From assembly GCA_046484345.1 (NCBI GenBank), contig JAWOJA010000007.1, positions 11,206 to 75,205 of the forward strand: a DNA stretch of 64,000 nucleotides, in the 5' to 3' direction. The notes under the pieces were generated by a model, which saw only the letters and a program-made list of their open reading frames with translations, did no database searches and was not told where the DNA came from. This document shows, in pieces, positions 2,271-40,320 of the stretch (its first letter is position 1; the number at the start of each line of letters is the position of its first letter). Made by a program: the position numbers and the translations under genes. The DNA comes from Kiritimatiellia bacterium (GTDB lineage Bacteria; Verrucomicrobiota; Kiritimatiellia; CAIKKV01).

Positions 2271-2395
2271 GCATTTTAAGCTGGAACGAAACGGCCCTTT
2301 ACTCTATAAATATTCTCATAGCGCGTGTAGCGCCCGGTAGCTTCCGCTCAATGAGCGGTTCCGGAATAAAGCCAAAGTGCCGAGAAGGAGATCGC

Positions 2396-3733: not shown

Positions 3734-3736
3734 GGC

Positions 3737-5499: not shown

Positions 5500-5516
5500 T
5501 CCGCGAAGGAGGACGC

Positions 5517-6038: not shown

Positions 6039-6050
6039 TCCGGAGGATGC

Positions 6051-6926
6051 ATGAAAGCGGCGTTGCGGTTCCGGATGGCCGGCCTATTTCTGATGGCGGC
6101 CTTCGCGGCTGTCCCTGTTCCGGCGGCCTCTCCCCTGGTCCTTCAGGTCTTTTCCAACGCCACGCTGGTGGCCGATCACCCGGCCAATGACGGCGACAGC
6201 TTCCTGGTGACGGCGGGCGGCGTGCGCCACCATCTTCGTTTGTATTATGCGGACTGTCCCGAATCGCGCGCCACGCAGGAGTCCGATTTCAAGCGCGTGC
6301 GCGAGCAGCGCCGCTACTTCGGCCTCCCCGGCGAAGCCCGGGTGATCGATTTCGGCCGCCAGGCCTCCGCCTTCAGCCGGCAGGCGCTCGCCCGGCCGTT
6401 CGTATTCCATACGGCCTTTGTGAATGCTTTGGGGCGCAGCCAGGACAAGCGTTACTACGCCTTCATCCGCACGGCGGACGGGCAGGATCTGGCCGAACTG
6501 CTGGTCCGGGCCGGCCTCGCCAGGGCCTACGGCATGGGTCGCGAAACGCCCTCCGGCCAGGCCCAGAACGAGTATAAGGCCTGGATGGGGGACCTCGAGG
6601 CCGCCGCCATGCTGAAGCGCCGGGGGGTCTGGGCGGAGTCGGATCCGGATCAGATCGTCGCGCTCCGGGCGGAGCGCCGGCGGGAGGACCAGGAGCTGGA
6701 TACCATTCGCGAAACGCTCAAGGCCGCCGATTCGGCGGGACAGCCGCGAATCAACCTGAACAGCGCCGCGTTGGAGCAGTTGATGGATCTTCCGGGCGTG
6801 GGCGAAGCGACCGCCCGGCGCATCCGGGACGGGCGGCCGTGGAAATCCTGGGAGGCGCTCGACCGGTTGAAGGGCGTGGGGCCCGCCACGCTGGCGCAAT
6901 GGCGGGAGCGCGCGGTTCTGGAATGA
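6051..6926 (+). CDS. Secreted thermonuclease (SNase-like) with C-terminal ComEA-type helix-hairpin-helix DNA-binding domain
   Basis: Signal peptide. SNase core (GDSFLV...VRHHLRLYYADCPE). C-terminal tandem HhH (LMDLPGVGEATARRI...LKGVGPATL). Confidence 0.6.
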   Translation: MKAALRFRMAGLFLMAAFAAVPVPAASPLVLQVFSNATLVADHPANDGDSFLVTAGGVRHHLRLYYADCPESRATQESDFKRVREQRRYFGLPGEARVIDFGRQASAFSRQALARPFVFHTAFVNALGRSQDKRYYAFIRTADGQDLAELLVRAGLARAYGMGRETPSGQAQNEYKAWMGDLEAAAMLKRRGVWAESDPDQIVALRAERRREDQELDTIRETLKAADSAGQPRINLNSAALEQLMDLPGVGEATARRIRDGRPWKSWEALDRLKGVGPATLAQWRERAVLE

Positions 6927-9463
6927 GCCGCGAACTGCCCATCTTCGAACTGGAGAGCGAGCTTGTCCGGGAGGCCGGCCGCTCAAGGCGCTTCATTCTG
7001 ACCGCCCCCACGGGTTCCGGAAAATCCACGCAGGTGCCCCAGATGCTGGTGGACCGGGGCCTGGCCGACCACGGCGAAGTGGTTATTCTTCAACCCCGGC
7101 GCCTGGCCGCGCGGCTTCTCGCCGCGCGCGTGGCGCGCGAGCGCGATGGGCGGCTCGGCGGCGAAGTGGGCTACCGGATCCGGTTTGACGATGTGACCTC
7201 CGCGGAGACGCGGATCGTCTACGTCACCGAGGGCATTCTCCTGCGCCGCATCCTGGCCGACCCCTTGCTGAAGGGAGTCAGCGCGGTTCTCTTCGATGAA
7301 TTTCACGAGCGGCACCTGTATGGCGATGTCACGCTGGGCATGGTGCTGCGCCTCCAGGAAACGACCCGGCCCGATCTGCTGCTGGGCGTGATGTCCGCCA
7401 CCCTGGAGATTGCTCCGCTGAAGGCGCGCCTGGGGGACTGTCCCGTATTGACCGCCCGCGGCCGGCTCTATCCGGTCGATATTCGTTACCTCGACCGGGC
7501 CCCCGATCCCCGGCGCACCCCCCCCTGGGAGGCGGCGGCCGACGCCCTGGAGTCGCTGGTTGGCGAGGGCGTGCCCGGCGATGCGCTGGTGTTCATGCCC
7601 GGCGCTTATGAAATCGGGCGGACCCTCCAGGCACTCCAGGCCCGCTCCTGCACGCGCGGGTTCGCCCTGCTGCCTCTGCACGGCGAATTGTCCGCCGACG
7701 CCCAGGACGCGGCCGTGGCGCGAAGCGAACGCCGCAAGATCGTGGTGGCCACCAATGTGGCGGAAACGTCCCTCACCATCGACGGCGTGCGGATGGTGAT
7801 CGACAGCGGCCTGGCCCGCGTGCCGCGCTACGATCCGTGGCGGGGCATTAACACGCTTCTGGTGGAATCGATCAGCCGCGCCTCTTCGGACCAGCGCGCC
7901 GGCCGCGCGGGCCGCACCGCCCCCGGCGTCTGCATGCGGCTGTGGACCGAGCGGGAGCAGGCGGGCCGGCCCGCGGCGGAGCTTCCCGAAGTGAGGCGGG
8001 TCGACCTTTCCGAAGCCGTGCTGCTGCTGAAGGCGGCGGGCGTGGGGGAGCTGCGCGACTTCCCCTGGATCGATCCGCCCGAGGAAAAGGCGCTGACGCG
8101 CGCCCAGACCTTGCTCGACGACGCGGGGGCGATCGAGGGACCGGCGGGCGGGATTACGGAACTGGGCCGGCGCATGGCGGCCTTTCCGATGCATCCGCGC
8201 TATTCCCGCATGCTGCTGGCGGCGGAGCAGTTCGGCTGCGTGCGCGAGGCGGCCTGGATTGCGGCGCTGACCGAGGGGCGTCACCTGCTGGTCCGGCGCA
8301 CCGACGCCGACACCGAGGAGCGGCGCGATCGTTCGCTGGGCGAGGAGTCGGACTCTGATTTTGCCCTCATGATCCGGGCCTGGCGGCACGCCCAGGATGC
8401 CGGCTACGCGTTGGAGGCCTGTCGCCGCCTCGGCATTCACGCCCAGGCCGCCCGGCAGGCGGGCGCCACGGCGGACCTGTTTTTGAGGCTCGCCCGCCGG
8501 GCGGGACTGCGCATCGCCGATGCCGAAGCGGATCCCGAGGCTGTGGCGCGCTGCGTGCTGACGGCCTTTCCCGACCATGTGGCGAAGCGGTTTGACGGCG
8601 GAACCCTGCGCTGCCAGATCGTGCACGGGCGGCGCGGGATGCTGGCGCGCGAGAGCGCCGTGCGCGGCTCGCCCCTGCTCGTGGCCGCGGAGATCCGCGA
8701 GATCGAGGCCGGCCGCGGCGAGATCGAGGTGCGCCTCAGCCTGGCGGTGGCGATCCGCCAGGAGTGGCTCGAGGCCCTCTTTCCGCGCCATTTCACCCGG
8801 CAGGTCCGCGTCGCCTGGGATGCGGCGGCCAAGCGCGTGACGGCGGAGGAGGAATGGCGGTACCACGACCTGGTGCTGGAGAGCCGGCGCCTCGACCGGC
8901 CGCCCGCGGAGGAGGCCGCCGCCGTGCTCGCGGAGGAGGCGGTCAAGGGGCGCCTGGTGCTGCAGGGCTGGGACCATGCCGTGGAACAATGGATCCTGCG
9001 GGTCGATTTTCTGGCCCGTGTTTGTCCCGATTTTGATCTTCCCCCGTTCGGCGCGGCCGAACGGGAGTTCTTGATCCGACAGTTGTGCCTGGGTTCGGCC
9101 TCCTACAAGGAGATCAAGGACAAGCCCGCCCTGCCGGTGGTGCGCGACTGGCTCTCCGGCGCTCAGCGCGCGCTGGTGGAGCGCCATGCCCCCGAGCGGA
9201 TCGAGCTGGCGAACGGGAAGCGGGCGAAAGTGGTTTACGCCGCTGGTGCCCCGCCGCATATTGCCATGCGCATCCAGGAGCTTTACGGGGTGAACACGAC
9301 GCCCACGATCGCCATGGGCCGCGCGCCGCTGCAGGTGCAGATTCTCGCGCCCAGCCATCGGCCCGTGCAGATCACCCAGGATTTGCGAGGCTTCTGGCGC
9401 GATGCGTATCCCAAGATCAAGCAGGAACTCCAGCGGAAATATCCGCGGCATGAATGGCGGTAA
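6923..9463 (+). CDS. hrpB: ATP-dependent RNA helicase HrpB (DEAH-box)
   Basis: Walker A TAPTGSGKST. DEAH motif (FDEFHER). HrpB C-terminal domain. Start ATG overlaps the upstream stop (ATGA). Confidence 0.85.
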   Translation: MSRELPIFELESELVREAGRSRRFILTAPTGSGKSTQVPQMLVDRGLADHGEVVILQPRRLAARLLAARVARERDGRLGGEVGYRIRFDDVTSAETRIVYVTEGILLRRILADPLLKGVSAVLFDEFHERHLYGDVTLGMVLRLQETTRPDLLLGVMSATLEIAPLKARLGDCPVLTARGRLYPVDIRYLDRAPDPRRTPPWEAAADALESLVGEGVPGDALVFMPGAYEIGRTLQALQARSCTRGFALLPLHGELSADAQDAAVARSERRKIVVATNVAETSLTIDGVRMVIDSGLARVPRYDPWRGINTLLVESISRASSDQRAGRAGRTAPGVCMRLWTEREQAGRPAAELPEVRRVDLSEAVLLLKAAGVGELRDFPWIDPPEEKALTRAQTLLDDAGAIEGPAGGITELGRRMAAFPMHPRYSRMLLAAEQFGCVREAAWIAALTEGRHLLVRRTDADTEERRDRSLGEESDSDFALMIRAWRHAQDAGYALEACRRLGIHAQAARQAGATADLFLRLARRAGLRIADAEADPEAVARCVLTAFPDHVAKRFDGGTLRCQIVHGRRGMLARESAVRGSPLLVAAEIREIEAGRGEIEVRLSLAVAIRQEWLEALFPRHFTRQVRVAWDAAAKRVTAEEEWRYHDLVLESRRLDRPPAEEAAAVLAEEAVKGRLVLQGWDHAVEQWILRVDFLARVCPDFDLPPFGAAEREFLIRQLCLGSASYKEIKDKPALPVVRDWLSGAQRALVERHAPERIELANGKRAKVVYAAGAPPHIAMRIQELYGVNTTPTIAMGRAPLQVQILAPSHRPVQITQDLRGFWRDAYPKIKQELQRKYPRHEWR

Positions 9464-11957: not shown

Positions 11958-12947
11958 TCAGTGAACAATGAAACGGCCGTCTTCATAACGCACGTCCGGT
12001 CCTTTGAGTTTGGAAAGGTCGGTCGGGTTGAGCTTCAGCAGGCGCGCGGGGTTGTCGAACCCGACCTGCCACAGCCCCTTTTCGTCGAGCAGATGGAGGC
12101 CCGCCAGGTGGTTCATGCACTCCAAAAGGGTGGAGTGGGAGCCGGCGAGGCTCTGGCTTGTTTCCGAATAGATTTTGCCGTTTTCGCCGACCACCACAGG
12201 AAGCCCGTTGAAGATGGTGTAGCGGCCGGGCGGCATTCCGGCGAGGCAGGAGGCGTCGCTGGTGACAATGAATCCATCGGGCGTCTTGGCCCGGAGCGCG
12301 ACTTTGATCAGGTCGTCGGGCAGGTGGTGCCCGTCGGTAATGAAGAGTCCGCTCGCCTCGTCGCAGGACAGTTGCCACCAGAGCGGGTTGTCGTGCCGGT
12401 GCATCAGGTTGGGACAGCCGTTGCCGACGTGGGTGCACAGGGAGGCGCCGGCCTGGACGGCGCGGGTCATTTCCTCGTCGGAGGCCAGGTGATGGCCTAT
12501 GGAGACCACGACGCCGGAGCCCGCCGCGTAGCGGATCAGCTCCTCCGCGCCCGGCAGTTCGGGCGCCAGGGTGAGGATGCGGATGCCTCCGCCCGCCCAT
12601 TCCTGGTATTGCCGGAAGGCCTGGACATTCGGCGTCTGGACGAACTTTTTTGAATGGGCGCCAACCGCGCCCGGTTCGGTGGAAATGAAGGGGCCCTCGA
12701 GGTGGATGCCGAGGATATGGGGCCCGACGAGGGGATCTTTCATGGCCTCGGCCAGCACGCGGAGGTTGTTTTTGTAAACCGCCGGATCGCCGGTGATGAC
12801 GGTGGGGCAGTAGGCGAGGGTGCCGCGGGCGATGAGGTCCAGGGTGGTGTTCCGGACCTGTTCGAGGGTGAGTCCGGCGCAGGTGAAGTCGATGCCCATC
12901 CACCCGTTGTTTTGAACGTCGATAAAACCTTTTCGAGTTGATTTCAT
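11958..12947 (-). CDS. N-acetylglucosamine-6-phosphate deacetylase-like amidohydrolase (NagA family, short N-terminus)
   Basis: GFIDVQNNG (E. coli NagA has GFIDVQLNG), HLEGPF, SIGHH, THVGNG, TDGHH and VTSDAS motifs are collinear with NagA. Confidence 0.7.
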   Translation of the reverse strand: MKSTRKGFIDVQNNGWMGIDFTCAGLTLEQVRNTTLDLIARGTLAYCPTVITGDPAVYKNNLRVLAEAMKDPLVGPHILGIHLEGPFISTEPGAVGAHSKKFVQTPNVQAFRQYQEWAGGGIRILTLAPELPGAEELIRYAAGSGVVVSIGHHLASDEEMTRAVQAGASLCTHVGNGCPNLMHRHDNPLWWQLSCDEASGLFITDGHHLPDDLIKVALRAKTPDGFIVTSDASCLAGMPPGRYTIFNGLPVVVGENGKIYSETSQSLAGSHSTLLECMNHLAGLHLLDEKGLWQVGFDNPARLLKLNPTDLSKLKGPDVRYEDGRFIVH

Positions 12948-14502: not shown

Positions 14503-14811
14503 GGCGGCCCATGCGGTTAATAGGGCTGACGGAGGCGCCCGAGGGCGCTTTGCCGGCGGGCGGCCGCAATCCCTTGATCGCGGCGCGGCAGGATGTCATC
14601 GGATTCTCCTTTAATTGGCGGAATAGTAGCAAAAGGAGCGGCAAAAGTCCCCTTTTCTTTCACGCGGGCCCGAACGTCCACGTTTTGTTTGATGGCGACA
14701 ATGTTTTTTTATTGAACAAACAGGAACATCCTTTAGAATTCTGCGTCCACAATGGGGAAGGTTTTCCCGGTCGGACTTTGGGTGCGGACAGACTCACATC
14801 GAAGGAGGGGT

Positions 14812-16470
14812 ATGAGGGCAGGGGCGTGCGTGTGGCTGGCGGCGGCGTGTGCGGTTCTGGGCGGTTCGGGGGGGGCGCAAGCCGCCGGGCCCGGCTTCCC
14901 GATCCGCGAGGTGCAAGTCGGGGGCGATGCGGCGGTGCTGGCCCGGGAGGGCCTGCTGGAGCCCTGGAAGGCGGAATTGACGGGGCGGACCCTTTCTTCG
15001 GAAGAGGTCCAGGAAAAGGCCCGCCAGCTTCGCGACCAACTGCGCGAACGGGGTTACTTCCTGGCGTCGGTGCGCACGCCGCCGGCCGATTATTCCGCCG
15101 GCGTGGTGCCGATCGAGGTGGATGCCGGGCGGTTCGGCACGCTGTCCATTTCGGGGCCGGGCGGCGCCCCCTTTGAGGGCCGCTGGTTCGACGAGGAGCA
15201 GCTGCGGTACCGTCTTTCCGGCATGGGCGAGGGGCTGTTCTTCCGTGAATCCGATTTTTACCGCCACGTGCTGGGCGTCAACACGCATCCCGATCTCGTT
15301 CTGGATCCCGTACTCAAGGTGCGCAAGGAAACGGAGGACGGGCTTGTCCGGCGCCATGTGGACATCCGGGCCGAGGTGACGGAAGCCCTGCCCCTGCACG
15401 CCATCCTGACGGTGGACAACACCGGCACCGAAGCGACCGGCGAATGGCGCGCCACGGCCCTGGTGCAGTACCTGAACCTGACCCGGCACGACGATATTCT
15501 CTCCGTCTGGCTGGGGCCGGTCTCGGAGGAATCGGGCTCCAGTCGCTCGGCCGCGGCCAGCTATCTGCGGCCGAACCGGATCGGCCGGGGGGGCGGCACG
15601 CTGCTCTATGGCGGTTATTCCGATGTGGAAGCGCAGGAGGTTGCGGACGTCTTCGCCTTCCGCGGCGAAGGTTGGTTTGTCGGTTTGCGCCAAGATTGGC
15701 GCCTGGCCGCCAACGAGGTGCGGGAAGTGGTGTTCAGCCTGGGCGCCTCCTGGCGCGGCCAGGAGGAGACGCTCTCCGTCGAACAGGATGATTTAGACCA
15801 TGATGGCGACACCCGCACGGTTTCCGTGATGCCGGTCAGCGTCGGACTGCAGGTCAATCCCATGCGGACGGACGCCTGGAACGGGCGGACTTTTCTGGAT
15901 GCCGAAATCGTCTGCGGTCCCGGGGGGCTCATGGGAAGCGAGGATGACATCGAGGAATTCAAGCCGGGCGCGGAGGCCACCTATGTCGTCGGGCGCTTGC
16001 GCCTGGCGCGGCTACAGCCGCTCGGAAATGCCCCGCGCGAACGGACCGGGGATCTCTGGATGCTCTTCGGCCGGGCGGAGCTGCAGGCCGCCAACGGGGC
16101 GCTTCTGGGCGCCGAGCAACTGGCGTTGGGCGGCATGGAAACCGTGCGCGGCTTTGCGGAGCGCGCGGTCATGGGCGATCAGGGCGGGGATGCGACGCTG
16201 GAGCTGCGCACGCCGCTGGCGGGCTCGTTCCTGCACGCCCAGGGCGTCCTGTTTGCCGATGCGGGCCATGCCATTTCCGAGGGCGAGGACGACCGGGACG
16301 CCATCACGCTGGCCGGAGCGGGTGCGGGAATTCGCCTGGCCATGGGGCCCTACTCGCAACTCCGCCTGGATTACGGCGTGCCGGTGAGCGGCAAGGAAGA
16401 GGTGGAGGAGGAAACCGGAACGACCGTCGACTCCGGCCGCCTGCATCTGCGCGCGACAATTCAATTTTAA
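14812..16470 (+). CDS. ShlB/FhaC/HecB-family outer-membrane secretion/activation protein (TpsB, two-partner secretion transporter)
   Basis: RBS GAAGGAGG before the ATG at 14812. Signal peptide, POTRA region, conserved GG(M)ETVRGF motif, and a C-terminal Phe. Confidence 0.8.
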   Translation: MRAGACVWLAAACAVLGGSGGAQAAGPGFPIREVQVGGDAAVLAREGLLEPWKAELTGRTLSSEEVQEKARQLRDQLRERGYFLASVRTPPADYSAGVVPIEVDAGRFGTLSISGPGGAPFEGRWFDEEQLRYRLSGMGEGLFFRESDFYRHVLGVNTHPDLVLDPVLKVRKETEDGLVRRHVDIRAEVTEALPLHAILTVDNTGTEATGEWRATALVQYLNLTRHDDILSVWLGPVSEESGSSRSAAASYLRPNRIGRGGGTLLYGGYSDVEAQEVADVFAFRGEGWFVGLRQDWRLAANEVREVVFSLGASWRGQEETLSVEQDDLDHDGDTRTVSVMPVSVGLQVNPMRTDAWNGRTFLDAEIVCGPGGLMGSEDDIEEFKPGAEATYVVGRLRLARLQPLGNAPRERTGDLWMLFGRAELQAANGALLGAEQLALGGMETVRGFAERAVMGDQGGDATLELRTPLAGSFLHAQGVLFADAGHAISEGEDDRDAITLAGAGAGIRLAMGPYSQLRLDYGVPVSGKEEVEEETGTTVDSGRLHLRATIQF

Positions 16471-16488: not shown

Positions 16489-17094
16489 ATGAACCGAATC
16501 ATGGGTAAATGGGTTGGTGCGGGACTGATCGGCCTGGCGCTGAGCGCGGCGATGGCGGGCCCGCCGCCTCCGCCGCCGCCAAACGGCGGCACGATCAAAC
16601 CCCCGGATACGCTTCCGCCGGGAAAGATTTATTTCGAGGACAACGTGGTCATCGTGGGGCCCGGCTTCGTGAAGCCCGATTCCAACGGCGGCACGGTGTT
16701 CGTGGACCTGTCCAAGATTAATGCCGATACGCTCGATCCAAACGGGAAAAACAGCAAAACGTTCAACCAGGTGGTTCGGGAATTGAGCCAGGTCAAGGCG
16801 CAGGTCGAGGCCGAAGCCGTTGCCCTGCCCCGCGGATTGCTGGATCCGGTCTCGCTGCTGGCGGTCCTCAACGCGGATGACCTACCGGTGGGCGAGGGCA
16901 TTTTCGAAGACCCCGCGTTCCTGCACGAGGAGGCGGGCTCGCGGGATCTGTCGGCCTCGGATCGGACGGACCAGGCCCGTTCCGGCGGGGCGGCGGTTCA
17001 GGCCGCACCCGGCGCGCCCGCGCCGGCCCGCGCCAAAAAAGGGGGCCCCGGCGCTCCGGCGATTCCGTCATACTGGCAATTGCCCATCCGCTAG
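16489..17094 (+). CDS. Small secreted Pro/Gly/Ala-rich protein of unknown function (immediately downstream of TpsB)
   Basis: Signal peptide. PPPPPPP tract. Low-complexity C-terminus. Starts 18 nt after the TpsB stop, preceded by RBS GAGGGGGA. Confidence 0.5.
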   Translation: MNRIMGKWVGAGLIGLALSAAMAGPPPPPPPNGGTIKPPDTLPPGKIYFEDNVVIVGPGFVKPDSNGGTVFVDLSKINADTLDPNGKNSKTFNQVVRELSQVKAQVEAEAVALPRGLLDPVSLLAVLNADDLPVGEGIFEDPAFLHEEAGSRDLSASDRTDQARSGGAAVQAAPGAPAPARAKKGGPGAPAIPSYWQLPIR

Positions 17095-17142: not shown

Positions 17143-18927
17143 ATGCGGGACGCCTTCAGCCAGTTTAAGTTTGCGGAACGGACCGACAAGGGCCGGGTCC
17201 GCGAAAACAATGAGGATGTGATACTCTGCCTCCCCGAGGCGGGGCTTTTCGCCATAGCCGACGGCATGGGCGGCGCCCGCGAGGGGGAGGTGGCCGCCCG
17301 CGCGGCCATCGAGCATCTGCGCGAATCGTGCGGCGATGCGGGCGTGCCCCTCTTGACCCGCTTCCGCCGCTGCCGCGACGCCGTCAATGACGCCAGCCTC
17401 TGGATCCGCCAATATGCGACCCGGCACGGCAATCCCGGCATGGGCACCACGCTGGTGGTGCTGTTGTTCGATTTGGACGATCCCGCCGCCGCCGCCGTCC
17501 TGCACGCGGGCGACAGCCGCCTGTACCGTTTCCGCAAGGGCGTGCTGGAGCAGATGACCCGCGATCATTCCGTGGCCGCCATGGCCGGGGTGGGCGAAGG
17601 CGGTCATTTGCCGCCCATGTTTCGGAGTGTGATCACCCGCTCCGTGGGCGCGCGCCGGAGCGTGGAATTGGACACCACCACACTCGACGTCCAGCGTGGC
17701 GATCTGTTCCTGCTTTGTTCCGACGGCCTTCCCAACATGGTGTCGCGGGATAAAATGGCCGCGATTCTGGGGGCCCCCCAAGACCTGGAAGGCCAGGCCG
17801 AGGCGTTGATCAAGGAGGCCCTTGACCAAGGCGGGGACGACAATATTTCGGTGGTGCTGGTCCGGGCCGAGGGGGCCCCCGACGGGGAGACCCCGGTCAC
17901 GGCCGATGCCGAACCGGTTCCCCTTCGGGATATGCCTTCGCCCGCCCATGACACGCCCCCGCGCCGGGTTTGGGGCCCCCTGGCCAGCCTGTTGGCGATT
18001 GCCCTGGCGGGCGTCGTGGCCGTCTGGTTCGCGTTCCTGCCCGCTTCCGACCCCCCGCCAACCGTTCCGGCTTCCGTTCCGGAGCCCGCCCCCGTTGAGC
18101 AACAGCCGCTGTCTTTGAGGCAGGCGGCTGTTGTTCCCAATATGGATACTAATGCCGTGCCGGGCCCCGCTGCCGTGGAGGCGGCCTGGCAGGCCGAGCT
18201 TGCCGAGGTGGCGGCCGAGCCCGACCGGCTCAATCACCGCCATGAGGCCGTCTTGCGCGCCTTTGCCCAGTTGTCGGGCTGGGCCGGCAAGCCGCTTCCG
18301 GCGCCCTCGCTGATGATCGCGGGGGAGCCCGGGGAACGGGCCGAGGCCTGGGGCCGCTATCTGAAAAATGCGCAGGATCAATGGCGGACGTTCGCCGGGA
18401 TCGAATGCGCCCGCCTGCGCGCCGAAGCGTCCTGCCTGTCGGCCGAAGCGCTGCAAGCCCTCTGGCGCTGGGATCGGGCGGGGGACGGGCCCGACCCCGC
18501 CGGATTAAACGAAATTGTGGCGGACTGGGAGGCCTGGCGCCGGGAATTGGACCGGATGGAGAAGTTTTTTAATGAGGAACAAGGGGTCGCGCCTTTTCTT
18601 TATGCGCTGCGGGCGGACCTCTTCACGCCGGGCGGCCTGGCCGCCGACCTGGGCGACAGGACGTGGAACGGCGTGCTGCCCGCCATCGGCGGCATGTGGC
18701 GCAAGCGGGAGTATTGGATCGGGCCAGCCGGGGAGGCGGACGTGGTGAAGGTGGATGAGGCGATCCGGCAGGCCAACGCCATCACCGGCGGCTACCGGGA
18801 CGCCGGCTACGCGGTTCGCCCCTGGCGGCAGACGATGGACCCGGCGGGCCTCGCCGCCTTTTTAGAGCTGATGCGGTCGGAGGCGATCGGCCGTGTTTTG
18901 AAGCGGCAGCCGGACGACCCACACTAG
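17143..18927 (+). CDS. PP2C-family Ser/Thr protein phosphatase with C-terminal TM segment and ~270-aa extracytoplasmic domain
   Basis: PP2C motifs (FAIADGMGG, GTTLVVL, CSDGL). TM helix LASLLAIALAGVVAVWFAF. Confidence 0.8.
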   Translation: MRDAFSQFKFAERTDKGRVRENNEDVILCLPEAGLFAIADGMGGAREGEVAARAAIEHLRESCGDAGVPLLTRFRRCRDAVNDASLWIRQYATRHGNPGMGTTLVVLLFDLDDPAAAAVLHAGDSRLYRFRKGVLEQMTRDHSVAAMAGVGEGGHLPPMFRSVITRSVGARRSVELDTTTLDVQRGDLFLLCSDGLPNMVSRDKMAAILGAPQDLEGQAEALIKEALDQGGDDNISVVLVRAEGAPDGETPVTADAEPVPLRDMPSPAHDTPPRRVWGPLASLLAIALAGVVAVWFAFLPASDPPPTVPASVPEPAPVEQQPLSLRQAAVVPNMDTNAVPGPAAVEAAWQAELAEVAAEPDRLNHRHEAVLRAFAQLSGWAGKPLPAPSLMIAGEPGERAEAWGRYLKNAQDQWRTFAGIECARLRAEASCLSAEALQALWRWDRAGDGPDPAGLNEIVADWEAWRRELDRMEKFFNEEQGVAPFLYALRADLFTPGGLAADLGDRTWNGVLPAIGGMWRKREYWIGPAGEADVVKVDEAIRQANAITGGYRDAGYAVRPWRQTMDPAGLAAFLELMRSEAIGRVLKRQPDDPH

Positions 18928-18930
18928 GGG

Positions 18931-21900
18931 ATGAGGGGCATGGCAGAAACCGAGCAGGCGCGGATCGGCGATTTCCAAATCGAGGGCAAAATCGGCGAAG
19001 GCTCCCTCGGCACGGTCTTCAAGGCGGTTTGCCTCGCCGATGGGCCGCCCCCGTTGCGGAAAGGGCTGGCGGTGGCGCTCAAAAAGCTCCACCCGTCCGC
19101 GGATCTCACGCGCGAGATGAAGGCGTTGCAGGCCCTGGCCCATCCGCATATTGTCCGGTTTTTCTCCTGTTTTGTCTCCCGTCCGGGCGAGTGGGACGAA
19201 GCGCCGTTCCTGGTTACGGAACTCCTCGAGGGGTGCGACCTGGCCCGGCATTTGCAGGGATTCCCCTCCGGCCTTCCGTGGGAGGAGGCGAAACGGCTCC
19301 TGGACCAGACGCTGGATGCGCTGGCCTTTGCCGAATCCCAGGGCGTGACGCATCGCGACCTGAAACCGTCCAACCTATTTGTCTGCCGCGACGGCTCCGT
19401 GAAAATCATCGATTTCGGCCTGGCCCGGCGGACGGGCGGCACGGTGTCGGTGGCCGAAGCCGGCCGGGCGGGCGGCTTGACCGGCACGCTGGACTACATG
19501 GCCCCGGAATTTGCCCGGATCGACGGTTTCCGGGGAGATGCGCTGTCGGACCTGTTCAGCTTCGGGGTGCTGGCCAGCCAGATCCTGACCGGGCAGTTGC
19601 CGTTCCCTCCGCTGGGGGAGCATCCGGAAATCGCGTTCATCCGGCGTTGGACGGGGCCCCAGCCGCCGCGCGCCATCCTGCCCCGGCCCATTGCGTACGC
19701 CTGGGAGGGCGCGGGCCCCTTTCTGGCGCGAGTCCTGCATGTGAATCGCGAAGCCCGCTTCCCGCATTTTGACGCTGCCCGCGAAGCCTTGGCCGGCATC
19801 CGGCCGCGGGTGTTGGCGGGAGGCCGCGAGGTCTACACGCTGGAAGCGTTCGTGGCATCGGGCGGATTTTGCGATGTTTTCCGCGGGCGGGCGGAGCGCG
19901 GCGGCGGCCCGGTGGCGATCAAGCGGCTGCATGCGGGACGGCACGAATGGCGCTTCCGCCGGGAAGCGGGGCTGTTGGACGCGTTGCAGAGCCTCGAGCA
20001 TCCCGCCCTGGTGAAGGTGCATGAATTGGTGGAGGAACCCGGACCCGACGGGGCCCCCTGCCTGGTCATGGAATATTTGCCCGGCGAGGATCTGCGCCGG
20101 CGGCTGTCCGATGGCTGGGAAGCGGGCGGGCTTGCGCCGGCGGAAGTCGCGCGCCTGTTTATCCGTTACCTCGAGGGGCTTGAAGCCCTGCACCGCCGGG
20201 GAATCGCCCACCGTGACATCAAGCCCGCCAACCTGTATGCGCCGGTCGGGAAGGCCGGCGAGGCCAAGCTCCTCGATCTTGGCATTGCCTGCGAGAAGGA
20301 AGGCACGCTGTCGATGAACGGCATGCCGCCGGGAACCCTCGATTACATGGCCCCCGAACTCGCCTCCGGCGCGGGCTCGCGCGGGTCGCCGCAGGCGGAC
20401 CTGTTCGCGCTGGGCTGCAGCCTGTACGAGGCTTTGACCGGGCGCCCGGCCTTCAAGCGGCTGCCCCGCGAGGATGCGGCCGCCCTGCGGGGCCTGTGCG
20501 CCCGCTCGGAGAGCGAATCGGCGTTTCTGGCGGCGTTTGAGGGCTTCGAGCTGCCGGTGTTTGAGGCGCAACCCGAATGGGCGGCCGTGATCGGCCGAGC
20601 CCTTCAGTATAATCCCGAAATTAGGTACGGTGGCCGGGAAGAAGAGCAGGCGAAGGGCTGGCAGGGGGCGGGCGCCCGGGCGATGCGGGTGGACCTGGAG
20701 GCGCTTCTGGAGCAGACGGCTTCCGGCCCGGGAGGCCCCGTTTCCGCGGGGGCATCCGCGGCCGCGCCGCCCACCTCGGATTTGACGGTGGCGCTGGAGC
20801 CCCCGCCTCCACCTAAGCGACGGCGGCGGGTTTGGCTGGCGGCGGGCCTGGCGTTGCTGGCCGCCGCCGGTGCCCCGCTCATCTGGTCCGGCCTTCCGGA
20901 AGCGGAAAAACCGGCCGCGTCCGCCGTGTCGGAGCCGGTGCCGCTGCGGGAGCAAGTGGAGCCTCCGGTTCAGGAGCCCGCGGTTCGGCCCGATCCTCCG
21001 GCGGCTGAAGTTCCACCCGAACTTCCGACCCCGGCCCCGGTTGTTCCGGCGCCCGAGGCCCCGCGCGTGGTGATCCGGCCCGCCCCGGCCGCGCCCAAAC
21101 CAATTGCAGTACCGGTTGCGCCCGTTGCCTCCCGGCCGGCGGTCCCGCCGGAGCCCGCCGGGCCTGTGGCCGCAGCACCGGATATTCCGGCGCCGCCTAT
21201 TCCCGACCCGCCCCCGGCACCAGCGAGGGAACCGGTGGAGGCGGAATTGGGGCTGGAGGAAAAATCGATCGACGCCTGGCGCGACTGGCTTTTCCGGGTG
21301 AACGATCCGCTGCAATCGCTCACGTTGAAGCGCTATGAGCAGGGGCTGACGAGTCCCGCCTGGAAGGGGCAGCTGCCGTTCCTGCTGGCGGCCGAGCGGG
21401 AGGCCATGCCGGCGGGGTTGCGCTGGCGGTATGAACGGGCGCACGTGTGGGAACAGGCTGTTCCCGGATTGAATGGGGCGGCGGCCTTTCAGGCGCTGGG
21501 CAAGGCTTTGCGCGGCGTGGCGGAGCGGGCGCGGGCGGAGGATCCGGGAACGGCCGATCAGTGCCTGTTCGACAGCGCCCTGGTGGAATGGGACGGCCGC
21601 ACGCCGCCCGATCCGGGGAAACTGCCCGCGCTGCCCGAAGCGGGAATCTGGCTTGCCCATGCGCTGGCGGCGTCGGGCGACGACCAGGACTGCCGTGACG
21701 TGCTGGCCGAAATTGCCGGCTATGCGGGACAGCCGGGCGCGCAGATCCGGGTGGAAGACGCCTTGCTGGCCCTGCGGGCGGCCGACACCTGCCTGGGCGG
21801 GCTGGTGAGGGATATTCGCGAGAAAACCTCCGCGGACGTGGTCAAGCCCGGCACGGGCCGCGCGGTCCGGGACCCGGTGGCCGCCTATGCGCTGGCGGTG

Positions 21901-22206
21901 GAGCGCGTGAGGGAAGAGGCGGCGGGGGCTGTCCGGCGGCTGTTGATTGTGGCGGGCGCGACCGGGCCGGGGGTTGCCCGGGCTATGGAGGAACGCCTGC
22001 GGACTGGAGTTAAAAAGGGGACGGTTGGCGATTATGCCTGGTCCGTTTCCGAATTGGGAAAGACGCCCTGGCGGGAAAGCCGCCAGACAGGGCTGCCGCG
22101 GCCGGAACGGCTGGCGGCGGAGGACCGCGCCATCCTGGGCCATGTGCTGGGCTATTCGCCCCTGCCGAAGCGGCCGGAGGAGCTTCCGCTGGCCCGGTTG
22201 CGCTAG
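18931..22206 (+). CDS. Membrane-anchored Ser/Thr protein kinase with two tandem, apparently intact kinase domains
   Basis: Domain 1 has GEGSLGTV, VALKKL, HRDLKPSN, DFG, APE. Domain 2 has VAIKRL, HRDIKPAN, DLG, APE. A Pro-rich linker and one TM helix precede a ~430-aa C-terminal domain. Confidence 0.8.
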   Translation: MRGMAETEQARIGDFQIEGKIGEGSLGTVFKAVCLADGPPPLRKGLAVALKKLHPSADLTREMKALQALAHPHIVRFFSCFVSRPGEWDEAPFLVTELLEGCDLARHLQGFPSGLPWEEAKRLLDQTLDALAFAESQGVTHRDLKPSNLFVCRDGSVKIIDFGLARRTGGTVSVAEAGRAGGLTGTLDYMAPEFARIDGFRGDALSDLFSFGVLASQILTGQLPFPPLGEHPEIAFIRRWTGPQPPRAILPRPIAYAWEGAGPFLARVLHVNREARFPHFDAAREALAGIRPRVLAGGREVYTLEAFVASGGFCDVFRGRAERGGGPVAIKRLHAGRHEWRFRREAGLLDALQSLEHPALVKVHELVEEPGPDGAPCLVMEYLPGEDLRRRLSDGWEAGGLAPAEVARLFIRYLEGLEALHRRGIAHRDIKPANLYAPVGKAGEAKLLDLGIACEKEGTLSMNGMPPGTLDYMAPELASGAGSRGSPQADLFALGCSLYEALTGRPAFKRLPREDAAALRGLCARSESESAFLAAFEGFELPVFEAQPEWAAVIGRALQYNPEIRYGGREEEQAKGWQGAGARAMRVDLEALLEQTASGPGGPVSAGASAAAPPTSDLTVALEPPPPPKRRRRVWLAAGLALLAAAGAPLIWSGLPEAEKPAASAVSEPVPLREQVEPPVQEPAVRPDPPAAEVPPELPTPAPVVPAPEAPRVVIRPAPAAPKPIAVPVAPVASRPAVPPEPAGPVAAAPDIPAPPIPDPPPAPAREPVEAELGLEEKSIDAWRDWLFRVNDPLQSLTLKRYEQGLTSPAWKGQLPFLLAAEREAMPAGLRWRYERAHVWEQAVPGLNGAAAFQALGKALRGVAERARAEDPGTADQCLFDSALVEWDGRTPPDPGKLPALPEAGIWLAHALAASGDDQDCRDVLAEIAGYAGQPGAQIRVEDALLALRAADTCLGGLVRDIREKTSADVVKPGTGRAVRDPVAAYALAVERVREEAAGAVRRLLIVAGATGPGVARAMEERLRTGVKKGTVGDYAWSVSELGKTPWRESRQTGLPRPERLAAEDRAILGHVLGYSPLPKRPEELPLARLR

Positions 22207-22431
22207 CTGTGGTCGGTTGGACAGGGTGCGGCGTTTCGATCAGACGGACGCTGGCGATGCGATTTTGCGATGCTGGCGGTTGACGGCGAGGGGAGCTGGG
22301 CTCGTGCCCGCGAGCCTCCAGCCGGAAACCGGCAGCGCGCAAAAGCGCGCGGCAGGGAACGCCCGAAACGCCGCACCCAGCCCAACCGGGCATATAACCG
22401 CAACCATGTCGAATCCGCCGACGGCTTTCGC

Positions 22432-22460
22432 TTGAAGATCGGGACGGGAAGCGGTAGTGT
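22432..22460 (+). promoter_or_regulatory. Sigma-70-like promoter TTGAAG-N17-TAGTGT for the small-membrane-protein / sigma-54 activator operon
   Basis: Same -10 hexamer and spacer length as the promoters at 13018 and 44449. The ATG follows ~10 nt after the -10. Confidence 0.4.
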
Positions 22461-22469
22461 TTCACCACT

Positions 22470-22694
22470 ATGTACGAATTCTGGCTCTGTTTTATTCCGT
22501 TGTTTGTGGCCGTTCTCACCACCGGCATGCTGCTGGTCGGGCTGACGTTTCTGTTTGCCGATTCCATCACGCGCCGGCTGGGGCGCACGGGGACGAAGGC
22601 GATATCCAAGCCGACCAGCCTGTTTCTGGCGGCCATTGCCGTGATGCTGATGCGAAAGGGAATTGTCCTGGCCATTGCGACGGCGGGACCGTAA
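22470..22694 (+). CDS. Small (74 aa) two-TM membrane protein, hypothetical
   Basis: Two hydrophobic helices. Lies directly upstream of the FHA sigma-54 activator on the same strand. Confidence 0.4.
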
Positions 22695-22704
22695 GGGGTG
22701 CCGG

Positions 22705-24510
22705 ATGAAGACAGGGGTGCTGGTCAGGCAGAGGGCGGATGGGCATATGCGGCCGTGGCCGCTGCTGAAGCCGCTGGTGCGCGTTGGGCGGGCGCTTTCC
22801 CATGATATTGCCCTGACGGACCCCAGCGTGTCGCGCGATCATGCGGTCATTGAGACCCAGTACGGCGCCTGGGTGCTGACCGACCGGGACAGCCGCAACG
22901 GCACGCGGGTGAACGGCGTGGCCGTGGCCCGGCGGCAGTTGAACGACGGCGATGTGATCGCCTTCGGCGATGTGGCCATGGTCTTTCACGTGGTCGACGA
23001 GGAGCCGGCGCCCTCAGCGGTGGCGGCCGAATCGCGTGTGGGGCTGGATCTCGACCGGCGAACGATCGTCGCGCCGGATATCGCCCCGGAGGCGACCGCG
23101 TGGCCGGGCGTGTATGCCTGGCAGATGCTCAAGGCCCTTTCCAGCATCCAGACCCGGCCGCTGGACGATTATGTGCGCATGGCGATCAACGATTTGTCGG
23201 GCATTCGCCATGTGACGGGCAACGGGGTGGGGCTGATGGTGGAGCCCGGGGGCGCGTGGAAATGGATCTGGCACGAGGGGGCGGACGCCTCCATCAAGAC
23301 CTGGTGCGCCACGGAAGAGGTGGCGGCGGAGGTGCGGGCCAATCGCGCCGTTTATCGCTCCAAGGGCGCGCGGATTGAGGTGGAGGAGCTGGCCGACGGC
23401 GCCGTGTTTCCCATTGCCACCTGCGGCCGCGTGATTGGCTGCCTGTGCGTGCAGGGGCGCGGCGTGTTTCCCTCCGCGCTGCTGGCCATTTTTCGTGTTG
23501 CGGCCGAGGCGGTCGGCACGGCCCTGGGCTTGCGGGAGGTCATGGCCCAGCGCGCCGCCGAGCCGGGCCGGGGTCCGGCGGATGCCCGGCGGGCTCCGGT
23601 GATTGTGGGGCGCGGGCCCGCGCTGCTCCAGGTGATGCGCCAGGCCGGCAAGGCGGCGAAGCACGATGCCACGGTTTTGATCCGGGGCGAAACGGGAACA
23701 GGCAAGGAGCTGTTCGCCCGGCTGATCGTGGAGGAGAGCCCGCGGCGGGAGAAGCCTTTTATTCCGGTGCACTGCAGCGCGATCGATGAAAATTTGCTGG
23801 GCAGCATGCTGTTCGGGCACGAGAAGGGCGCCTTCACCGGGGCCGTGGGGCTGAAGAAGGGCGTGTTTGAAGAGGCGGACGGCGGCACCATTTTTCTCGA
23901 CGAAATCGGCGAGCTTTCGCTTTCCATGCAGGTCAAGCTATTGCGGGTGCTGCAGGAGGGGGAGTTTATGCGGCTGGGGGGGACCAAGCCCCTGCGGGTG
24001 AACGTGCGCATCATTGCGGCGACGAACCGCGATCTGGAGAAAGCGATCCGCGGGGGCCATTTCCGGGAGGATCTTTTTTACCGGTTGAATGTCATTTCGT
24101 TGCGGCTGCCGTCGTTGCGTGAGCGGCGCGAGGACATTCCCGAGCTGGTGCGCCATTATGTGGAGCAGCTTTCGCGCGAGACGGCCCGGGGCGTCTGCAC
24201 GGTGAGCGAAGAGGCCATGGCGCGTTTGCGGGAATATGATTGGCCCGGCAACATCCGGGAGCTGCGCAATGTTGTGGAGCGCGGCCTGGTGCTGGCCGAA
24301 GGGGGCGCCATCACGGAGGACGACCTTCCCATCGAGGTGGCGGCCCGGGCGGCCTGGCCGTCTGGCGCGCCCGAAGGCCATTCCCTAGAGCGGATGGAGC
24401 AGGGGCATATTCAGAGCGTGTTGCGCGACTGTGGCGGCAACAAGCGCCTGGCGGCCGGGCGGCTCGGTATTAGCCGCAGCACGTTGTATGTGAAATTGAA
24501 GGGCGAGTGA
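22705..24510 (+). CDS. Sigma-54-dependent transcriptional activator (bEBP) with N-terminal FHA domain
   Basis: FHA motifs (GR...DI.L.D..VSR.HA, NGT.VNG). AAA+ sigma-54 interaction domain ([28 protein letters not shown]-like). C-terminal Fis-type HTH. Confidence 0.85.
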
Positions 24511-24667: not shown

Positions 24668-25831
24668 TCACAGCTTGACGTGATAGCGGACGCTGCGGCC
24701 GCCGCCAGTTGAAACAAAAACTTCTTTTTCGACCAGATCCCGGAGATCGCGCGTGGCCGTCGGTTTTGTTGTCCCGGTAATGGACTTATACTTCTCCGCG
24801 CTCATGCCGCCTTCAAAGCCGTCAGGGCCATCCTTCAGCATGCGGCGGAGCGCCTTGAGCTGGCGTTCGTTGAGTTGGTTCTGCACCCGATCGAACAGGC
24901 GGGTCTTTTTCAATGTGAATTCAAGGGCGGCCTCCGCCTGGTTTTGGGCCGTGAGAAGCATGCCCGTGAACCAAACGATCCAGGGGGTGATTTCATTCGA
25001 ACGCTGGCCCTGCTTAAGCGCGGCATAATAACTTGACCGATCGGTTTCGATGGATTTTGAAAGGCTCAGCAGCGCGGGCCGGCCGATGCCCTGAGAGACG
25101 GCCTTTTCCGCAAGCCCCCGTCCGATCCTGCCGTTTCCGTCTTCAAACGGGTGGATCGTTTCAAAATAGAGATGGGCGATGGCCGCACGCACCGGAGCCC
25201 ACCGGATTTCGCACGTGCCACCGGGTGCTGTCTTGTTGAACCAGGTGATAAAGCGTTTCATTTCACCCGGCACCTTTTCGGAAGGGGGGGCTTCAAAATG
25301 AACGGTTTCGTTGCCGACAGTCCCGGAAACAACCCGCATGGCCTCATCATGCTTACGCCATGCGCCGGAGCGAACGTTGCGGGATCCTTTCATCAGCATC
25401 ACGTGCCATGAAAACAGCGACTCCCGACTTAAGGGTTTCTGCCAGTTATTTCGAACGCAGAGCATCAGCTCGGCGATTCCCTCCGCCCGTTTATCGCCAA
25501 TCGGCTCCGCTGTCCTGTTCAGGCCCAGGTTATTCCGGATCGACGACAGCACGTCGGGTCGGCTGAGATACGCCCCCTCAATTTCGGAAGTTTTGATGGC
25601 TTCCGAAACCATCAGATCGATTATGGTTTCGCTTTGCACATTTTGCGGCATAGCATCCAGCAGTCCGCCCAGGCGCCCGGTTTTCTCTCTGAACGTCAAG
25701 AGCAGGCCTTCAAGCGCTTCCAGTTTGAACGTGAAGTTTGGCCAGTCCGATTGTTGCCAATTGTAACTCTTGAGGCGATTATATCCTTTATTCGGCTCAT
25801 GAAGCCCCCCTCCGCCGGGTCTTTTCCACAT
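24668..25831 (-). CDS. Fic-family protein (AMPylation/adenylyltransferase-type) with C-terminal winged-helix domain
   Basis: Canonical Fic motif HPFEDGNGRIGR. N-terminal DUF4172-like region. Visibly lower GC than its flanks. Confidence 0.85.
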   Translation of the reverse strand: MWKRPGGGGLHEPNKGYNRLKSYNWQQSDWPNFTFKLEALEGLLLTFREKTGRLGGLLDAMPQNVQSETIIDLMVSEAIKTSEIEGAYLSRPDVLSSIRNNLGLNRTAEPIGDKRAEGIAELMLCVRNNWQKPLSRESLFSWHVMLMKGSRNVRSGAWRKHDEAMRVVSGTVGNETVHFEAPPSEKVPGEMKRFITWFNKTAPGGTCEIRWAPVRAAIAHLYFETIHPFEDGNGRIGRGLAEKAVSQGIGRPALLSLSKSIETDRSSYYAALKQGQRSNEITPWIVWFTGMLLTAQNQAEAALEFTLKKTRLFDRVQNQLNERQLKALRRMLKDGPDGFEGGMSAEKYKSITGTTKPTATRDLRDLVEKEVFVSTGGGRSVRYHVKL

Positions 25832-34078: not shown

Positions 34079-39514
<5,436 letters not shown>

Positions 39515-39653: not shown

Positions 39654-40051
39654 GTATTCAAGCTGTTTTCGTAAGTGCCACAATAAGAAGTTGTTGTGGC
39701 TATAAGCCCTTGAAAACACAATTTTTAAGGCGATCCAGATCGATCCGCCACGATAACAGGCGATCAAGTGAGAAACCAAGTGTCATGCGGTGTGTCATGC
39801 ACTTTGTTAAAAAGCATTTTATAGGGACAGGAAATGCGCTCTTATGATTGAGATTCTCCTGATATATCCACTGGACCTTAACAGGCGAAATCCTACCCTT
39901 ATCGCTTTACTCTATAATATTACTTTAAAGGATGTTGACTGAATGCCCTGTTGAGTCCAACATTGAAGAAGCTCGTTTTTGAGAAATTTCTCTTTGTCAA
40001 ACAAGACCCGCAAAGTCCAGAGGGGAACGAGACACCGAAAGGAGGCTACAC

Positions 40052-40301: not shown

Positions 40302-40320
40302 ACGTTCGAATATAATAAGA

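Follow-up and report, generated by a model that had tools for sequence, protein, structure and literature searches.

The 64,000-nt stretch of Kiritimatiellia DNA analysed here (contig JAWOJA010000007.1, positions 11,206 to 75,205; hereafter 'the window', to whose positions coordinates refer) contains a run of co-oriented genes coding for a membrane PP2C phosphatase, a receptor serine/threonine kinase (STK) with two fused kinase domains and an activator of sigma-54-dependent transcription that begins with an FHA domain. We interpret these genes as a trans-envelope Hanks-type phospho-signalling module, of which the adjacent FHA activator would be the transcriptional output, and we infer this coupling with a probability of roughly 55%. 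The strong conservation of the FHA domain and of a threonine in the same protein (Thr120) implies that some kinase acts on the activator, and the one encoded next to it is the most straightforward candidate.

The module comprises the following genes, listed together with a candidate promoter:
14752-16470, + strand: TpsB/ShlB-like outer-membrane protein, 572 aa (Pfam, FhaC alignment)
16489-17094, + strand: orphan secreted protein, 201 aa (translation, alignment of 7 orthologues)
17143-18927, + strand: membrane PP2C, 594 aa (Pfam/NCBIfam)
18931-22206, + strand: dual-kinase receptor STK, 1091 aa (Pfam)
22470-22694, + strand: MarC remnant, an open reading frame (ORF) of 74 aa (Pfam, tblastn)
22705-24510, + strand: FHA-type sigma-54 enhancer-binding protein (EBP), 601 aa (Pfam/NCBIfam)
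14712-14739, + strand: candidate sigma-70-type promoter, TTGAAC-16-TAGAAT (consensus scan, 9/12 matches)

The PP2C, STK and activator ORFs lie on the + strand where a first-pass annotation of this DNA had placed them. However, the start of the module, set at 17143 in that annotation, has to be moved to 14752, as two tightly spaced and conserved co-oriented genes precede the PP2C gene (18 nt separate the TpsB-like from the small-protein gene, and 48 nt the latter from the PP2C gene, on the same strand throughout). The window has a G+C content of approximately 65%, and third-position G+C values (GC3) of 0.80-0.83 back coding in the assigned frames, with one coding frame per gene. A divergent cation-efflux gene flanks the module upstream, and a Fic/DUF4172 gene (- strand) and then dnaE flank it downstream. 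This Fic gene (24668-25831, -), located between the activator and dnaE, is SoFic-like (PADLOC E 6.8e-45), has a G+C content of 0.586 and is absent at that position in relatives. The sigma-70-type candidate is weak (5 such sites in the region versus 1.2 expected), and the sequence concerned, upstream of the TpsB-like gene, is not conserved in relatives. A terminator scan returned nothing above chance, and Rfam and tRNA scans of the window retrieved three tRNAs only, with no RNA element within the ~500-nt gap between kinase and activator.

In the mechanism that we propose, a periplasmic or envelope cue would be sensed by the two differing ectodomains of phosphatase and kinase, perhaps with the involvement of the TpsB-like and secreted proteins, and would shift the balance between the two enzymes. 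The kinase would autophosphorylate its activation loops, and perhaps also its juxtamembrane PPT615SD motif, and would phosphorylate the activator, most likely at Thr120 (TxxΦ) in the linker that follows the FHA domain. The FHA domain would then bind phosphothreonine either on the kinase (docking) or at Thr120 of its own or a neighbouring protomer, in a self-recognition switch of the GarA/OdhI kind; this binding would alter the assembly of the AAA+ ring and, through it, sigma-54-dependent transcription, with the PP2C resetting the system.

Domain architecture of the phosphatase, the kinase and the activator

The domains and motifs of the three proteins, including their transmembrane (TM) segments, were located as follows:
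17182-17871, + strand: PP2C catalytic domain, cytoplasmic
17980-18036, + strand: single TM segment of the PP2C, residues 280-298
18172-18924, + strand: periplasmic Trp-rich helical domain of the PP2C, after a Pro-rich linker
18973-19800, + strand: kinase domain 1
19834-20700, + strand: kinase domain 2
20767-20781, + strand: juxtamembrane PPT615SD motif of the kinase, conserved as PPT615(S/R)D
20830-20886, + strand: single TM segment of the kinase, residues 634-652, preceded by KRRRR
21247-22203, + strand: TPR-like periplasmic domain of the kinase (~320 aa), after a Pro-rich linker
22777-22968, + strand: FHA domain of the activator (PF00498, residues 25-88, E 1e-17, full profile 1-67)
23062-23064, + strand: codon of Thr120 in the acidic linker of the activator (alignment of 36 homologues)
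about 23119-23574, + strand: divergent GAF-like domain of the activator (hhalign)
23602-24102, + strand: AAA+ domain of the activator (PF00158, E 2.4e-69, residues 300-466)
23827-23844, + strand: GAFTGA motif of the activator, residues 375-380
24382-24501, + strand: HTH_8 domain of the activator (PF02954, E 1.2e-11, residues 560-599)

The phosphatase had been described in the first-pass annotation as an extracytoplasmic PP2C. One TM segment and a large outer C-terminal domain were found as announced, but the catalytic domain is to be placed in the cytoplasm, since it is N-terminal to the TM segment and the protein has no signal peptide. It matches PP2C_2 (E 5.9e-9) and, over residues 14-240, the Stp1/IreP family of NCBIfam (E 1.7e-52, under the equivalog cut-off), and its metal-binding motifs (R20/N23/E24/D25, D40-G-M-G-G44, G123-D-S-R126, D194-G195 and D233-N234) are invariant in 7 orthologues. 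The nearest solved structures are PppA (best PDB match, E 1.1e-31), tPphA and PstP, and a metagenome scan with the PP2C alignment (pattern FxxxDGMGG) gave, among the matches listed, generic PP2Cs only. The 295-aa C-terminal part of the PP2C has no Pfam match, and no sequence relative was found in the PDB for its ectodomain, for that of the kinase or for the small secreted protein. A sensor domain shared by the PP2C and kinase ectodomains was considered and rejected (BLASTP E 0.08; hhalign on the orthologue alignments, probability 0.3%).

As predicted, the STK combines tandem kinase domains with a membrane segment: two stretches match Pkinase (E 1.9e-74), one TM segment follows, and the probable start is at 18940. 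The catalytic residues of domain 1 (K51, H141-R-D143, N148, D161-F-G and APE) and of domain 2 (K331, H427-R-D429, N434, D449-L-G and APE) are invariant in 6 orthologues, and neither domain looks like a pseudokinase on these residues; the two are 37% identical to each other. The conserved PPT615(S/R)D motif could be a candidate docking site. A structural comparison of the ectodomain gave PlcR in complex with PapR as its top match, and periplasmic TPR arrays on kinases of the Planctomycetes-Verrucomicrobia-Chlamydiae (PVC) group are an already described type (PMC11032199).

The fusion of two kinase domains extends well beyond the window. Among the 120 best kinase homologues (P0001-P0120), 116 have two kinase domains; as domain 1 of the window best fits the first, and domain 2 the second, kinase domain in 110 of 111 homologues, the fusion is ancient. 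A strict-core regular expression applied to the 120 dual kinases recovered two cores in 67, the DxG calls of the first core being unreliable and not used for family-wide activity. These homologues, from sources that include Kiritimatiellia, Lentisphaerae and Verrucomicrobia, vary in their C-terminal sensors (PEGA, FGE-sulfatase, TPR, FHA). In the literature searched, no paper describes bacterial STKs with tandem kinases; this family of two-kinase receptors is apparently large and undescribed so far, and its members are usually paired with a membrane PP2C. At least ten PP2C and dual-kinase matches were located on contigs of equal size (e.g. 22942, 9211, 8833, 9875, 86062, 28020, 136493, 11649, 5720 and 37795); these coinciding contig sizes suggest that the PP2C/dual-STK pair is a multi-copy cassette in these genomes.

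The activator, for which an exact-sequence look-up returned no record, carries the N-terminal FHA and the Sigma54_activat domains that had been announced, as well as an AAA lid (Pfam). The conservation of the phosphopeptide-binding residues of the FHA domain was verified by alignment: G28-R29, S43-R44-x-H46, S63-x-N65-G66-T67 and N70-G71 do not vary among 8 activators and are retained in 34-36 of the 36 sequences of a wider set, so that this FHA domain, with GR/SRxH/SxNGT/NG intact, is not degenerate. Likewise, the Walker A (GETGTGKE at 328), Walker B (D399/E400) and GAFTGA motifs are invariant in 8 homologues. The solved chains nearest to the FHA domain are those of Rv1747, FhaA, GarA (including its pThr22 form, PDB 2kfu 'Rv1827 pThr 22'), EmbR and OdhI, all of which belong to Ser/Thr kinase pathways. 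The middle domain was compared with the GAF-annotated domain of FHA-GAF activators by hhalign (probability 88%, E 3e-6).

Between the FHA and GAF-like domains lies an acidic linker, which we analysed on an alignment of the N-terminal 330 residues of 36 activator homologues (median identity to the window activator, 30%). In this otherwise hypervariable segment, Thr120 is the sole conserved column (T in 33 and S in 1 of the 36 sequences, as against 23/36 for the runner-up column of the linker). It is found at a fixed 19-20 residues before W139, within a conserved AWQ helix, and the residue at +3 is usually L, I, V or F, i.e. the TxxΦ pattern classical for FHA ligands. This conservation makes Thr120 a candidate phospho-acceptor. 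Similar motifs recur beyond this subfamily: in short FHA-AAA+ activators devoid of the GAF-like domain (P0155-P0225), [DE]TxxxT is found 12-15 residues past the FHA domain in 42 of 54 sequences (shuffle control: mean 2.6, maximum 8), following an acidic stretch as in DDAETCAMT or DEAETSVLT, and FHA-GAF activators of Acidobacteria and Planctomycetes possess TQSTI-type motifs at a comparable place. A threonine motif following the FHA domain may thus be a general phospho-switch motif of FHA activators.

Gene neighbourhood in related loci

The relatives considered here (L001-L018 and the P0005 contig) are contigs encoding relatives of the kinase, the PP2C or the activator, and were scored by tblastn with each domain of the window. 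Eight contig lineages have the genes of the trio (PP2C, dual-STK and FHA activator) linked to one another. The activator is located downstream of the kinase pair in the window, L005/L006, L009/L014, L013, L007 (where the N-terminal 123 aa match at 76% up to the contig end) and probably the P0005 contig. A full MarC gene precedes it, with a spacing of 5-25 nt, in L005/6, L009 and probably the P0005 contig, and an inverted UroD gene is inserted between kinase and activator in L013 and L007. Two of the eight lineages, distant metagenome-assembled genomes (MAGs), possess the trio as contiguous genes on the same strand, one from Lentisphaerae (L012: PP2C 799 aa, dual-STK 1656 aa, activator 608 aa) and one from Victivallales (L017: PP2C at least 988 aa, dual-STK 2201 aa, activator 617 aa). 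The L012 proteins share the single-TM topology of the window proteins; in both MAGs, the ectodomains are much larger than, and unrelated to, those of the window, and no TpsB-like gene is present. Since these distant trios keep the topology (L012) but differ in their ectodomains and are devoid of TpsB, the linkage of the activator follows the cytoplasmic domains. As judged from these comparisons, the activator travels with the cytoplasmic kinase/phosphatase side, whereas the TpsB-like and small-protein pair travels with the particular pair of ectodomains present in the window. Among seven further FHA activators, which came from other phyla and were fetched by chance, four have a Hanks kinase within their flanks.

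The four-gene core (TpsB-like protein, small protein, PP2C and dual-STK) was retrieved in the window, L001/2, L003/4, L005, L008, L009 and the P0005 contig, and the TpsB-like and small-protein genes accompany these PP2C/kinase ectodomains in 7 of 8 loci, being absent where the ectodomains differ. In L007, the core is split between the small-protein gene and the PP2C gene by a 6.7-kb insert (1468-8186) made of small genes, including toxin-antitoxin genes (PIN, BrnT/BrnA, DUF4160/DUF2442, META and others). L013 has the PP2C-STK pair, with no TpsB-like or small-protein gene within 1.9 kb of upstream sequence.

The TpsB-like protein displays a signal peptide, a POTRA domain, a 16-strand-type barrel and the VRGF loop-6 motif at residue 465. 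It matches ShlB (PF03865, E 4.1e-23), POTRA_2 (PF08479) and Omp85 (PF01103), and it aligns almost end to end (residues 74-547) with FhaC (82-534); an alignment with CdiB was obtained as well. The operon thereby connects an outer-membrane protein of the two-partner secretion (TPS) type with Ser/Thr signalling. In the small secreted protein, a signal peptide and a poly-Pro run were recognised, and two parts of its sequence are invariant among 7 orthologues: a PPPGKIYFEDNVVIVGPGF block and the extreme C-terminus, SYWQLPI(R/P). No relative was detected in Pfam, NCBIfam or the PDB, and only 3 representative clusters were found among 1.84 billion proteins, the protein being confined to one clade. 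No TPS domain was detected in these 201 aa, and no gene for a large exoprotein adjoins the TpsB-like gene. As the neighbour has no TPS domain, the two proteins do not form a canonical two-partner system.

Between kinase and activator, the first-pass annotation had noted a small membrane protein. The corresponding 74-aa ORF exists (22470-22694), but it is a MarC gene carrying an in-frame internal deletion. Indeed, it matches positions 147-200 of the 203 positions of the Pfam MarC profile, and, with the full MarC of L003, L005 and L009 as tblastn queries, only residues 1-21 and ~132-195 match the window ORF, fused in frame. Approximately 120 internal codons (residues ~22-131) are lost, so that the 74-aa product falls short of the full-length MarC/NAAT protein (~200 aa, six TM segments; 195-197 aa in the relatives). 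An intact MarC gene occupies the same position in L003, L005, L009 and the P0005 contig, and the spacer upstream of MarC is 263 nt in the window versus ~80 nt in the relatives. The deletion and the enlarged spacer together point to recent decay or rearrangement between kinase and activator in the window. Another ORF of 91 aa (22270-22545) was rejected as the small membrane protein, being Arg-rich and without family match.

A few kilobases downstream of the activator, oxidative-stress genes (rubredoxin, ferritin-like/rubrerythrin, AhpC/redoxin, DsbD) and a GH114 gene recur in several lineages (L005 20795-21473; L009 14503-15184; L010 10810-11310; L011 11856-12356; L013 13035-13616), and no sigma-54 promoter was found ahead of these oxidative-stress genes. 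Other neighbours have moved. A block formed by a GT2 gene, a Wzy_C gene (-) and a leucine-rich-repeat (LRR)-containing STK gene (-) lies at 48692-54000 in the window, 27 kb downstream of the module, and follows the module after only PfkB in L001 (14587-20076) and L008 (14548-19922). The malic enzyme gene is at 43067-44419 (-) in the window, but in L005 and the P0005 contig it immediately precedes the TpsB-like gene. As this block and the malic enzyme gene sit elsewhere in relatives, reshuffling has taken place in the region. Further along the window, a protein of 1811 aa (34079-39514, +) contains UvrA DNA-binding and interaction domains with several ABC ATPase P-loops and, with approximately twice the usual UvrA length, is apparently a duplicated or fused UvrA. 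A low-GC stretch (39900-42950; 0.513 at 40-42 kb) is possibly acquired DNA; its ORFs at 39912-40607 (-), 40321-41064 (+), 41061-41681 (+) and 41944-42945 (-) have no Pfam match, and genes for tRNA-Val (44497), tRNA-Met (45334) and tRNA-Ala (48570) lie a few kilobases away.

Predicted sigma-54 output and competing explanations

The clearest sigma-54-type sites were found in L012. The first ORF downstream of the activator, which codes for a hydrophobic protein of 79 aa and is followed by RcpC, secretin and TadA-like genes, has a near-consensus TGGCAC-N5-TTGC (GTTGGCACGCCTTTTGCGGT) 74 nt ahead of it, and the extended motif recurs (GTTGGCCCGAAAGTTGCGGT) ahead of an RHS-repeat gene. Both sites (stretches 12282-12611 and 19041-19145 of L012) share GTTGGCxCG-N4-TTGCGGT and are downstream of the FHA activator. 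Mononucleotide shuffles predict 0.53 comparably good sites in a locus of 21.8 kb; it is therefore the intergenic position and orientation of these sites, rather than their number, that supports them as promoters. As far as sequence allows to judge, the activator subfamily probably drives sigma-54 promoters. Our literature searches returned nothing on sigma-54 in Kiritimatiellia. In the window, the top sigma-54 matches (4888 - and 19241 +) fall inside coding regions; the close relatives display no site scoring >=10 except an intragenic one in L003, and no site is conserved upstream of the TpsB-like gene across 6 loci. A weak TGGCGG-N5-TAGCA (8/11) is found 135 nt upstream of the TpsB-like gene of the window, and it is not conserved in L001, L003, L005, L008 and L009. 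A sigma-54-like TGGGGC-N5-TTGCT (9/11; 57145-57160, +) lies elsewhere in the window; it stops 31 nt short of a glycosyltransferase gene that starts at 57191, and overlaps the end of the preceding glycosyltransferase gene.

Several observations weigh against a coupling of kinase and activator. The promoter scan advocated by the first-pass annotation yielded no convincing intergenic -24/-12 site (TGGCAC-N5-TTGCW) in the window, nor in the close relatives L005, L009 and L013, and no rpoN was found among the window genes scanned (64 kb). In the window, ~500 nt and the decayed MarC gene separate kinase from activator, so that the two genes may not be co-transcribed; the cognate kinase is not certain either, because these genomes carry many paralogous PP2C/dual-STK pairs, and the GAF-like domain could be the real sensor of the activator. 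L003 (in which MarC is present) and L001/L008 have no activator downstream. In the clade of L001/L008, the closest activator homologues (52-53% identity) adjoin ddl-ftsQAZ and rubrerythrin genes (L010 and L011, the latter from the same sample as L001), those of L016 and L018 have no kinase nearby, and the trio is unlinked in at least four activator lineages. Finally, the kinases of L012 and L017 are 36-38% identical to that of the window, i.e. no closer than its paralogues, so that the distant trios are only putative orthologues of the window trio. The path from kinase to FHA domain to sigma-54 that was originally proposed is thus borne out as regards its intact parts and the recurrence of the trio, but not as regards its linkage in several lineages, nor by a promoter or rpoN in the window. 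Were the coupling wrong, these would be ordinary signalling genes that merely adjoin.

Such a situation is what we would expect if the activator were only a neighbour, governed by its GAF-like domain or by other kinases, and if the unit made of the TpsB-like protein, secreted protein, PP2C and dual-STK acted post-translationally on envelope or secretion targets, as TagQRST-PpkA-PppA does. We regard this explanation as rather unlikely, but as the main rival: the four-gene core is tightly spaced wherever these ectodomains occur, including L001/2, L008 and L003/4, where the activator is missing; lone activator homologues exist in L010, L011, L016 and L018; a MarC or an inverted UroD gene intervenes between kinase and activator; the activator has its GAF-like domain; and many other STKs are available, including the LRR-STK of the window (50698-54000). 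However, the trio without TpsB recurs in Lentisphaerae and Victivallales, which inherited synteny alone hardly explains, and the conservation of the FHA domain and of Thr120 implies a kinase input. It is also conceivable, albeit with a distinctly low probability, that both outputs exist and that the main role of the system is to control how the small protein is exported or displayed by way of the TpsB-like barrel, with the activator merely tuning expression of the operon. The co-occurrence of the TpsB-like and orphan-protein genes with these ectodomains in 7 of 8 loci, the restriction of the secreted protein to one clade and the weak TGGCGG-N5-TAGCA site upstream of the TpsB-like gene are consistent with this role, yet that site is not conserved in the five relatives named above, the small protein, without TPS domain, is no canonical TpsA substrate, and nothing connects cytoplasmic phosphorylation to an outer-membrane barrel.

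A more speculative possibility would be that the operon of this diderm PVC bacterium forms an extracellular signalling circuit complete in itself, with a protein or peptide as the signal. The barrel would export the 201-aa protein, which, as a whole or through its C-terminal SYWQLPI(R/P), would be the ligand of the TPR-like domain of the kinase and/or of the helical domain of the PP2C, and occupancy would lead, via phosphorylation of Thr120 and self-recognition by the FHA domain, to sigma-54 transcription. We consider this circuit unlikely; if true, a two-partner-secretion exporter and a Hanks kinase/phosphatase pair would together function as a quorum or contact sensor, much as RRNPP systems do. 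The association of the TpsB-like and small-protein genes with these ectodomains, the restriction of the small protein to one clade and the structural match of the kinase ectodomain to PlcR with PapR are compatible with such a circuit. By far the least probable of the explanations is that the module serves in anti-phage defence, along the lines of the Ser/Thr-kinase systems PD-T4-6 or MADS. The PADLOC models mad6 and PD-T4-6 strongly match the kinase domains, and the SoFic-like Fic gene (24668-25831) lies just downstream, in a lower-GC stretch. However, the PADLOC matches are limited to generic kinase, PP2C and AAA+ domains, with none for the TpsB-like and small proteins; the MAD6 score in NCBIfam (177) is far under the cut-off of 460; and none of the partner genes of PD-T4-6 or MADS is present. 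A membrane receptor pair with periplasmic domains, in vertical chromosomal synteny with housekeeping genes, likewise speaks against defence.

Comparison with known systems

The coupling of kinase and FHA activator proposed here has several partial precedents. FHA-domain EBPs have been described in Myxococcus xanthus (Jelsbak, Givskov & Kaiser 2005, PNAS 102:3010), as cited in PMC11980068. As in the window, the FHA domain stands at the N-terminus of a sigma-54 activator; by contrast, the window activator belongs to a PVC-group bacterium and is genetically linked to a specific pair, a membrane PP2C and a receptor with two fused kinase domains; moreover, its middle domain is GAF-like and its linker carries the conserved Thr120 motif. 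The M. xanthus proteins of Jelsbak, Givskov & Kaiser are said to be NtrC-type sigma-54 activators in which an N-terminal FHA replaces the receiver domain, with an STK input presumed, and we know of no cognate kinase established for them.

In Mycobacterium tuberculosis, the FHA transcription factor EmbR is phosphorylated by PknH, the FHA domain mediating the interaction (PMC6213207). There too, an STK phosphorylates an FHA-bearing regulator, and EmbR is among the solved FHA chains closest to that of the window; however, EmbR is of the SARP/OmpR type and not an AAA+ sigma-54 activator, and PknH has a single kinase domain. The coupling, called rarely characterised in the first-pass annotation, is fairly so described, although its principle is known from the Myxococcus FHA-EBPs and from EmbR/PknH. 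The grouping of genes has its counterpart in the actinobacterial fhaA-fhaB-pstP-...-pknA-pknB operon, which combines genes for membrane receptor kinases, FHA proteins and PstP, a membrane PP2C with a domain outside the cell. PstP and FhaA also figure in the set of solved structures nearest to the window proteins. This operon differs from the module in its two separate kinase genes, its PASTA sensor and the absence of an outer-membrane component, and its FHA proteins are cell-wall and division scaffolds, not transcription activators.

The layout leading from the outer membrane to a kinase resembles that of TagQRST-PpkA-PppA-Fha1 in the H1 type VI secretion system (T6SS) of Pseudomonas aeruginosa, where outer-membrane and periplasmic proteins signal to an inner-membrane STK opposed by the PP2C PppA, with an FHA reader (PMC10482370). 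Indeed, PppA is the best PDB match of the window PP2C. The output of that system is the post-translational assembly of the T6SS, whereas the reader in the window is a transcription activator, and the outer-membrane part is a TpsB-type barrel and not a lipoprotein; T6SS families were found neither next to the module in the window nor in the related loci. As for the proposed switch, GarA and OdhI each bind, with their FHA domain, a phosphorylated threonine of their own flexible tail. The window activator likewise combines, on one polypeptide, an FHA domain with a conserved Thr motif in a flexible acidic segment, but the ETTS motif of GarA is N-terminal to the FHA domain and its output is enzyme inhibition, whereas Thr120 follows the FHA domain and its output would be AAA+ assembly.

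On the outer side, the POTRA domain, ShlB-type barrel, VRG(F/Y) motif and secreted protein encoded alongside are shared with two-partner secretion (FhaC/ShlB/CdiB), from which the window differs in that the neighbour is a 201-aa orphan without TPS domain and that the pair sits in a kinase/phosphatase operon. With respect to RRNPP receptors (PlcR/NprR/Rap), the TPR-like domain of the window is periplasmic and fused to a kinase, whereas RRNPP receptors are cytoplasmic, fused to an HTH or acting as a phosphatase, and their peptide is re-imported by Opp.

Sigma-54 activators with an FHA domain have been recognised in genomes since 2005. The window and the Lentisphaerae and Victivallales loci offer linked kinase, phosphatase and activator candidates, together with a candidate site, Thr120, with which the questions of which kinase feeds such activators and how the reading of phosphothreonine becomes AAA+ activation are testable in vitro. 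The signalling logic is already known from the systems above, from which the module differs in its fused dual kinase, its TpsB-type component with an orphan protein, its proposed sigma-54 AAA+ output and the Thr120 motif.

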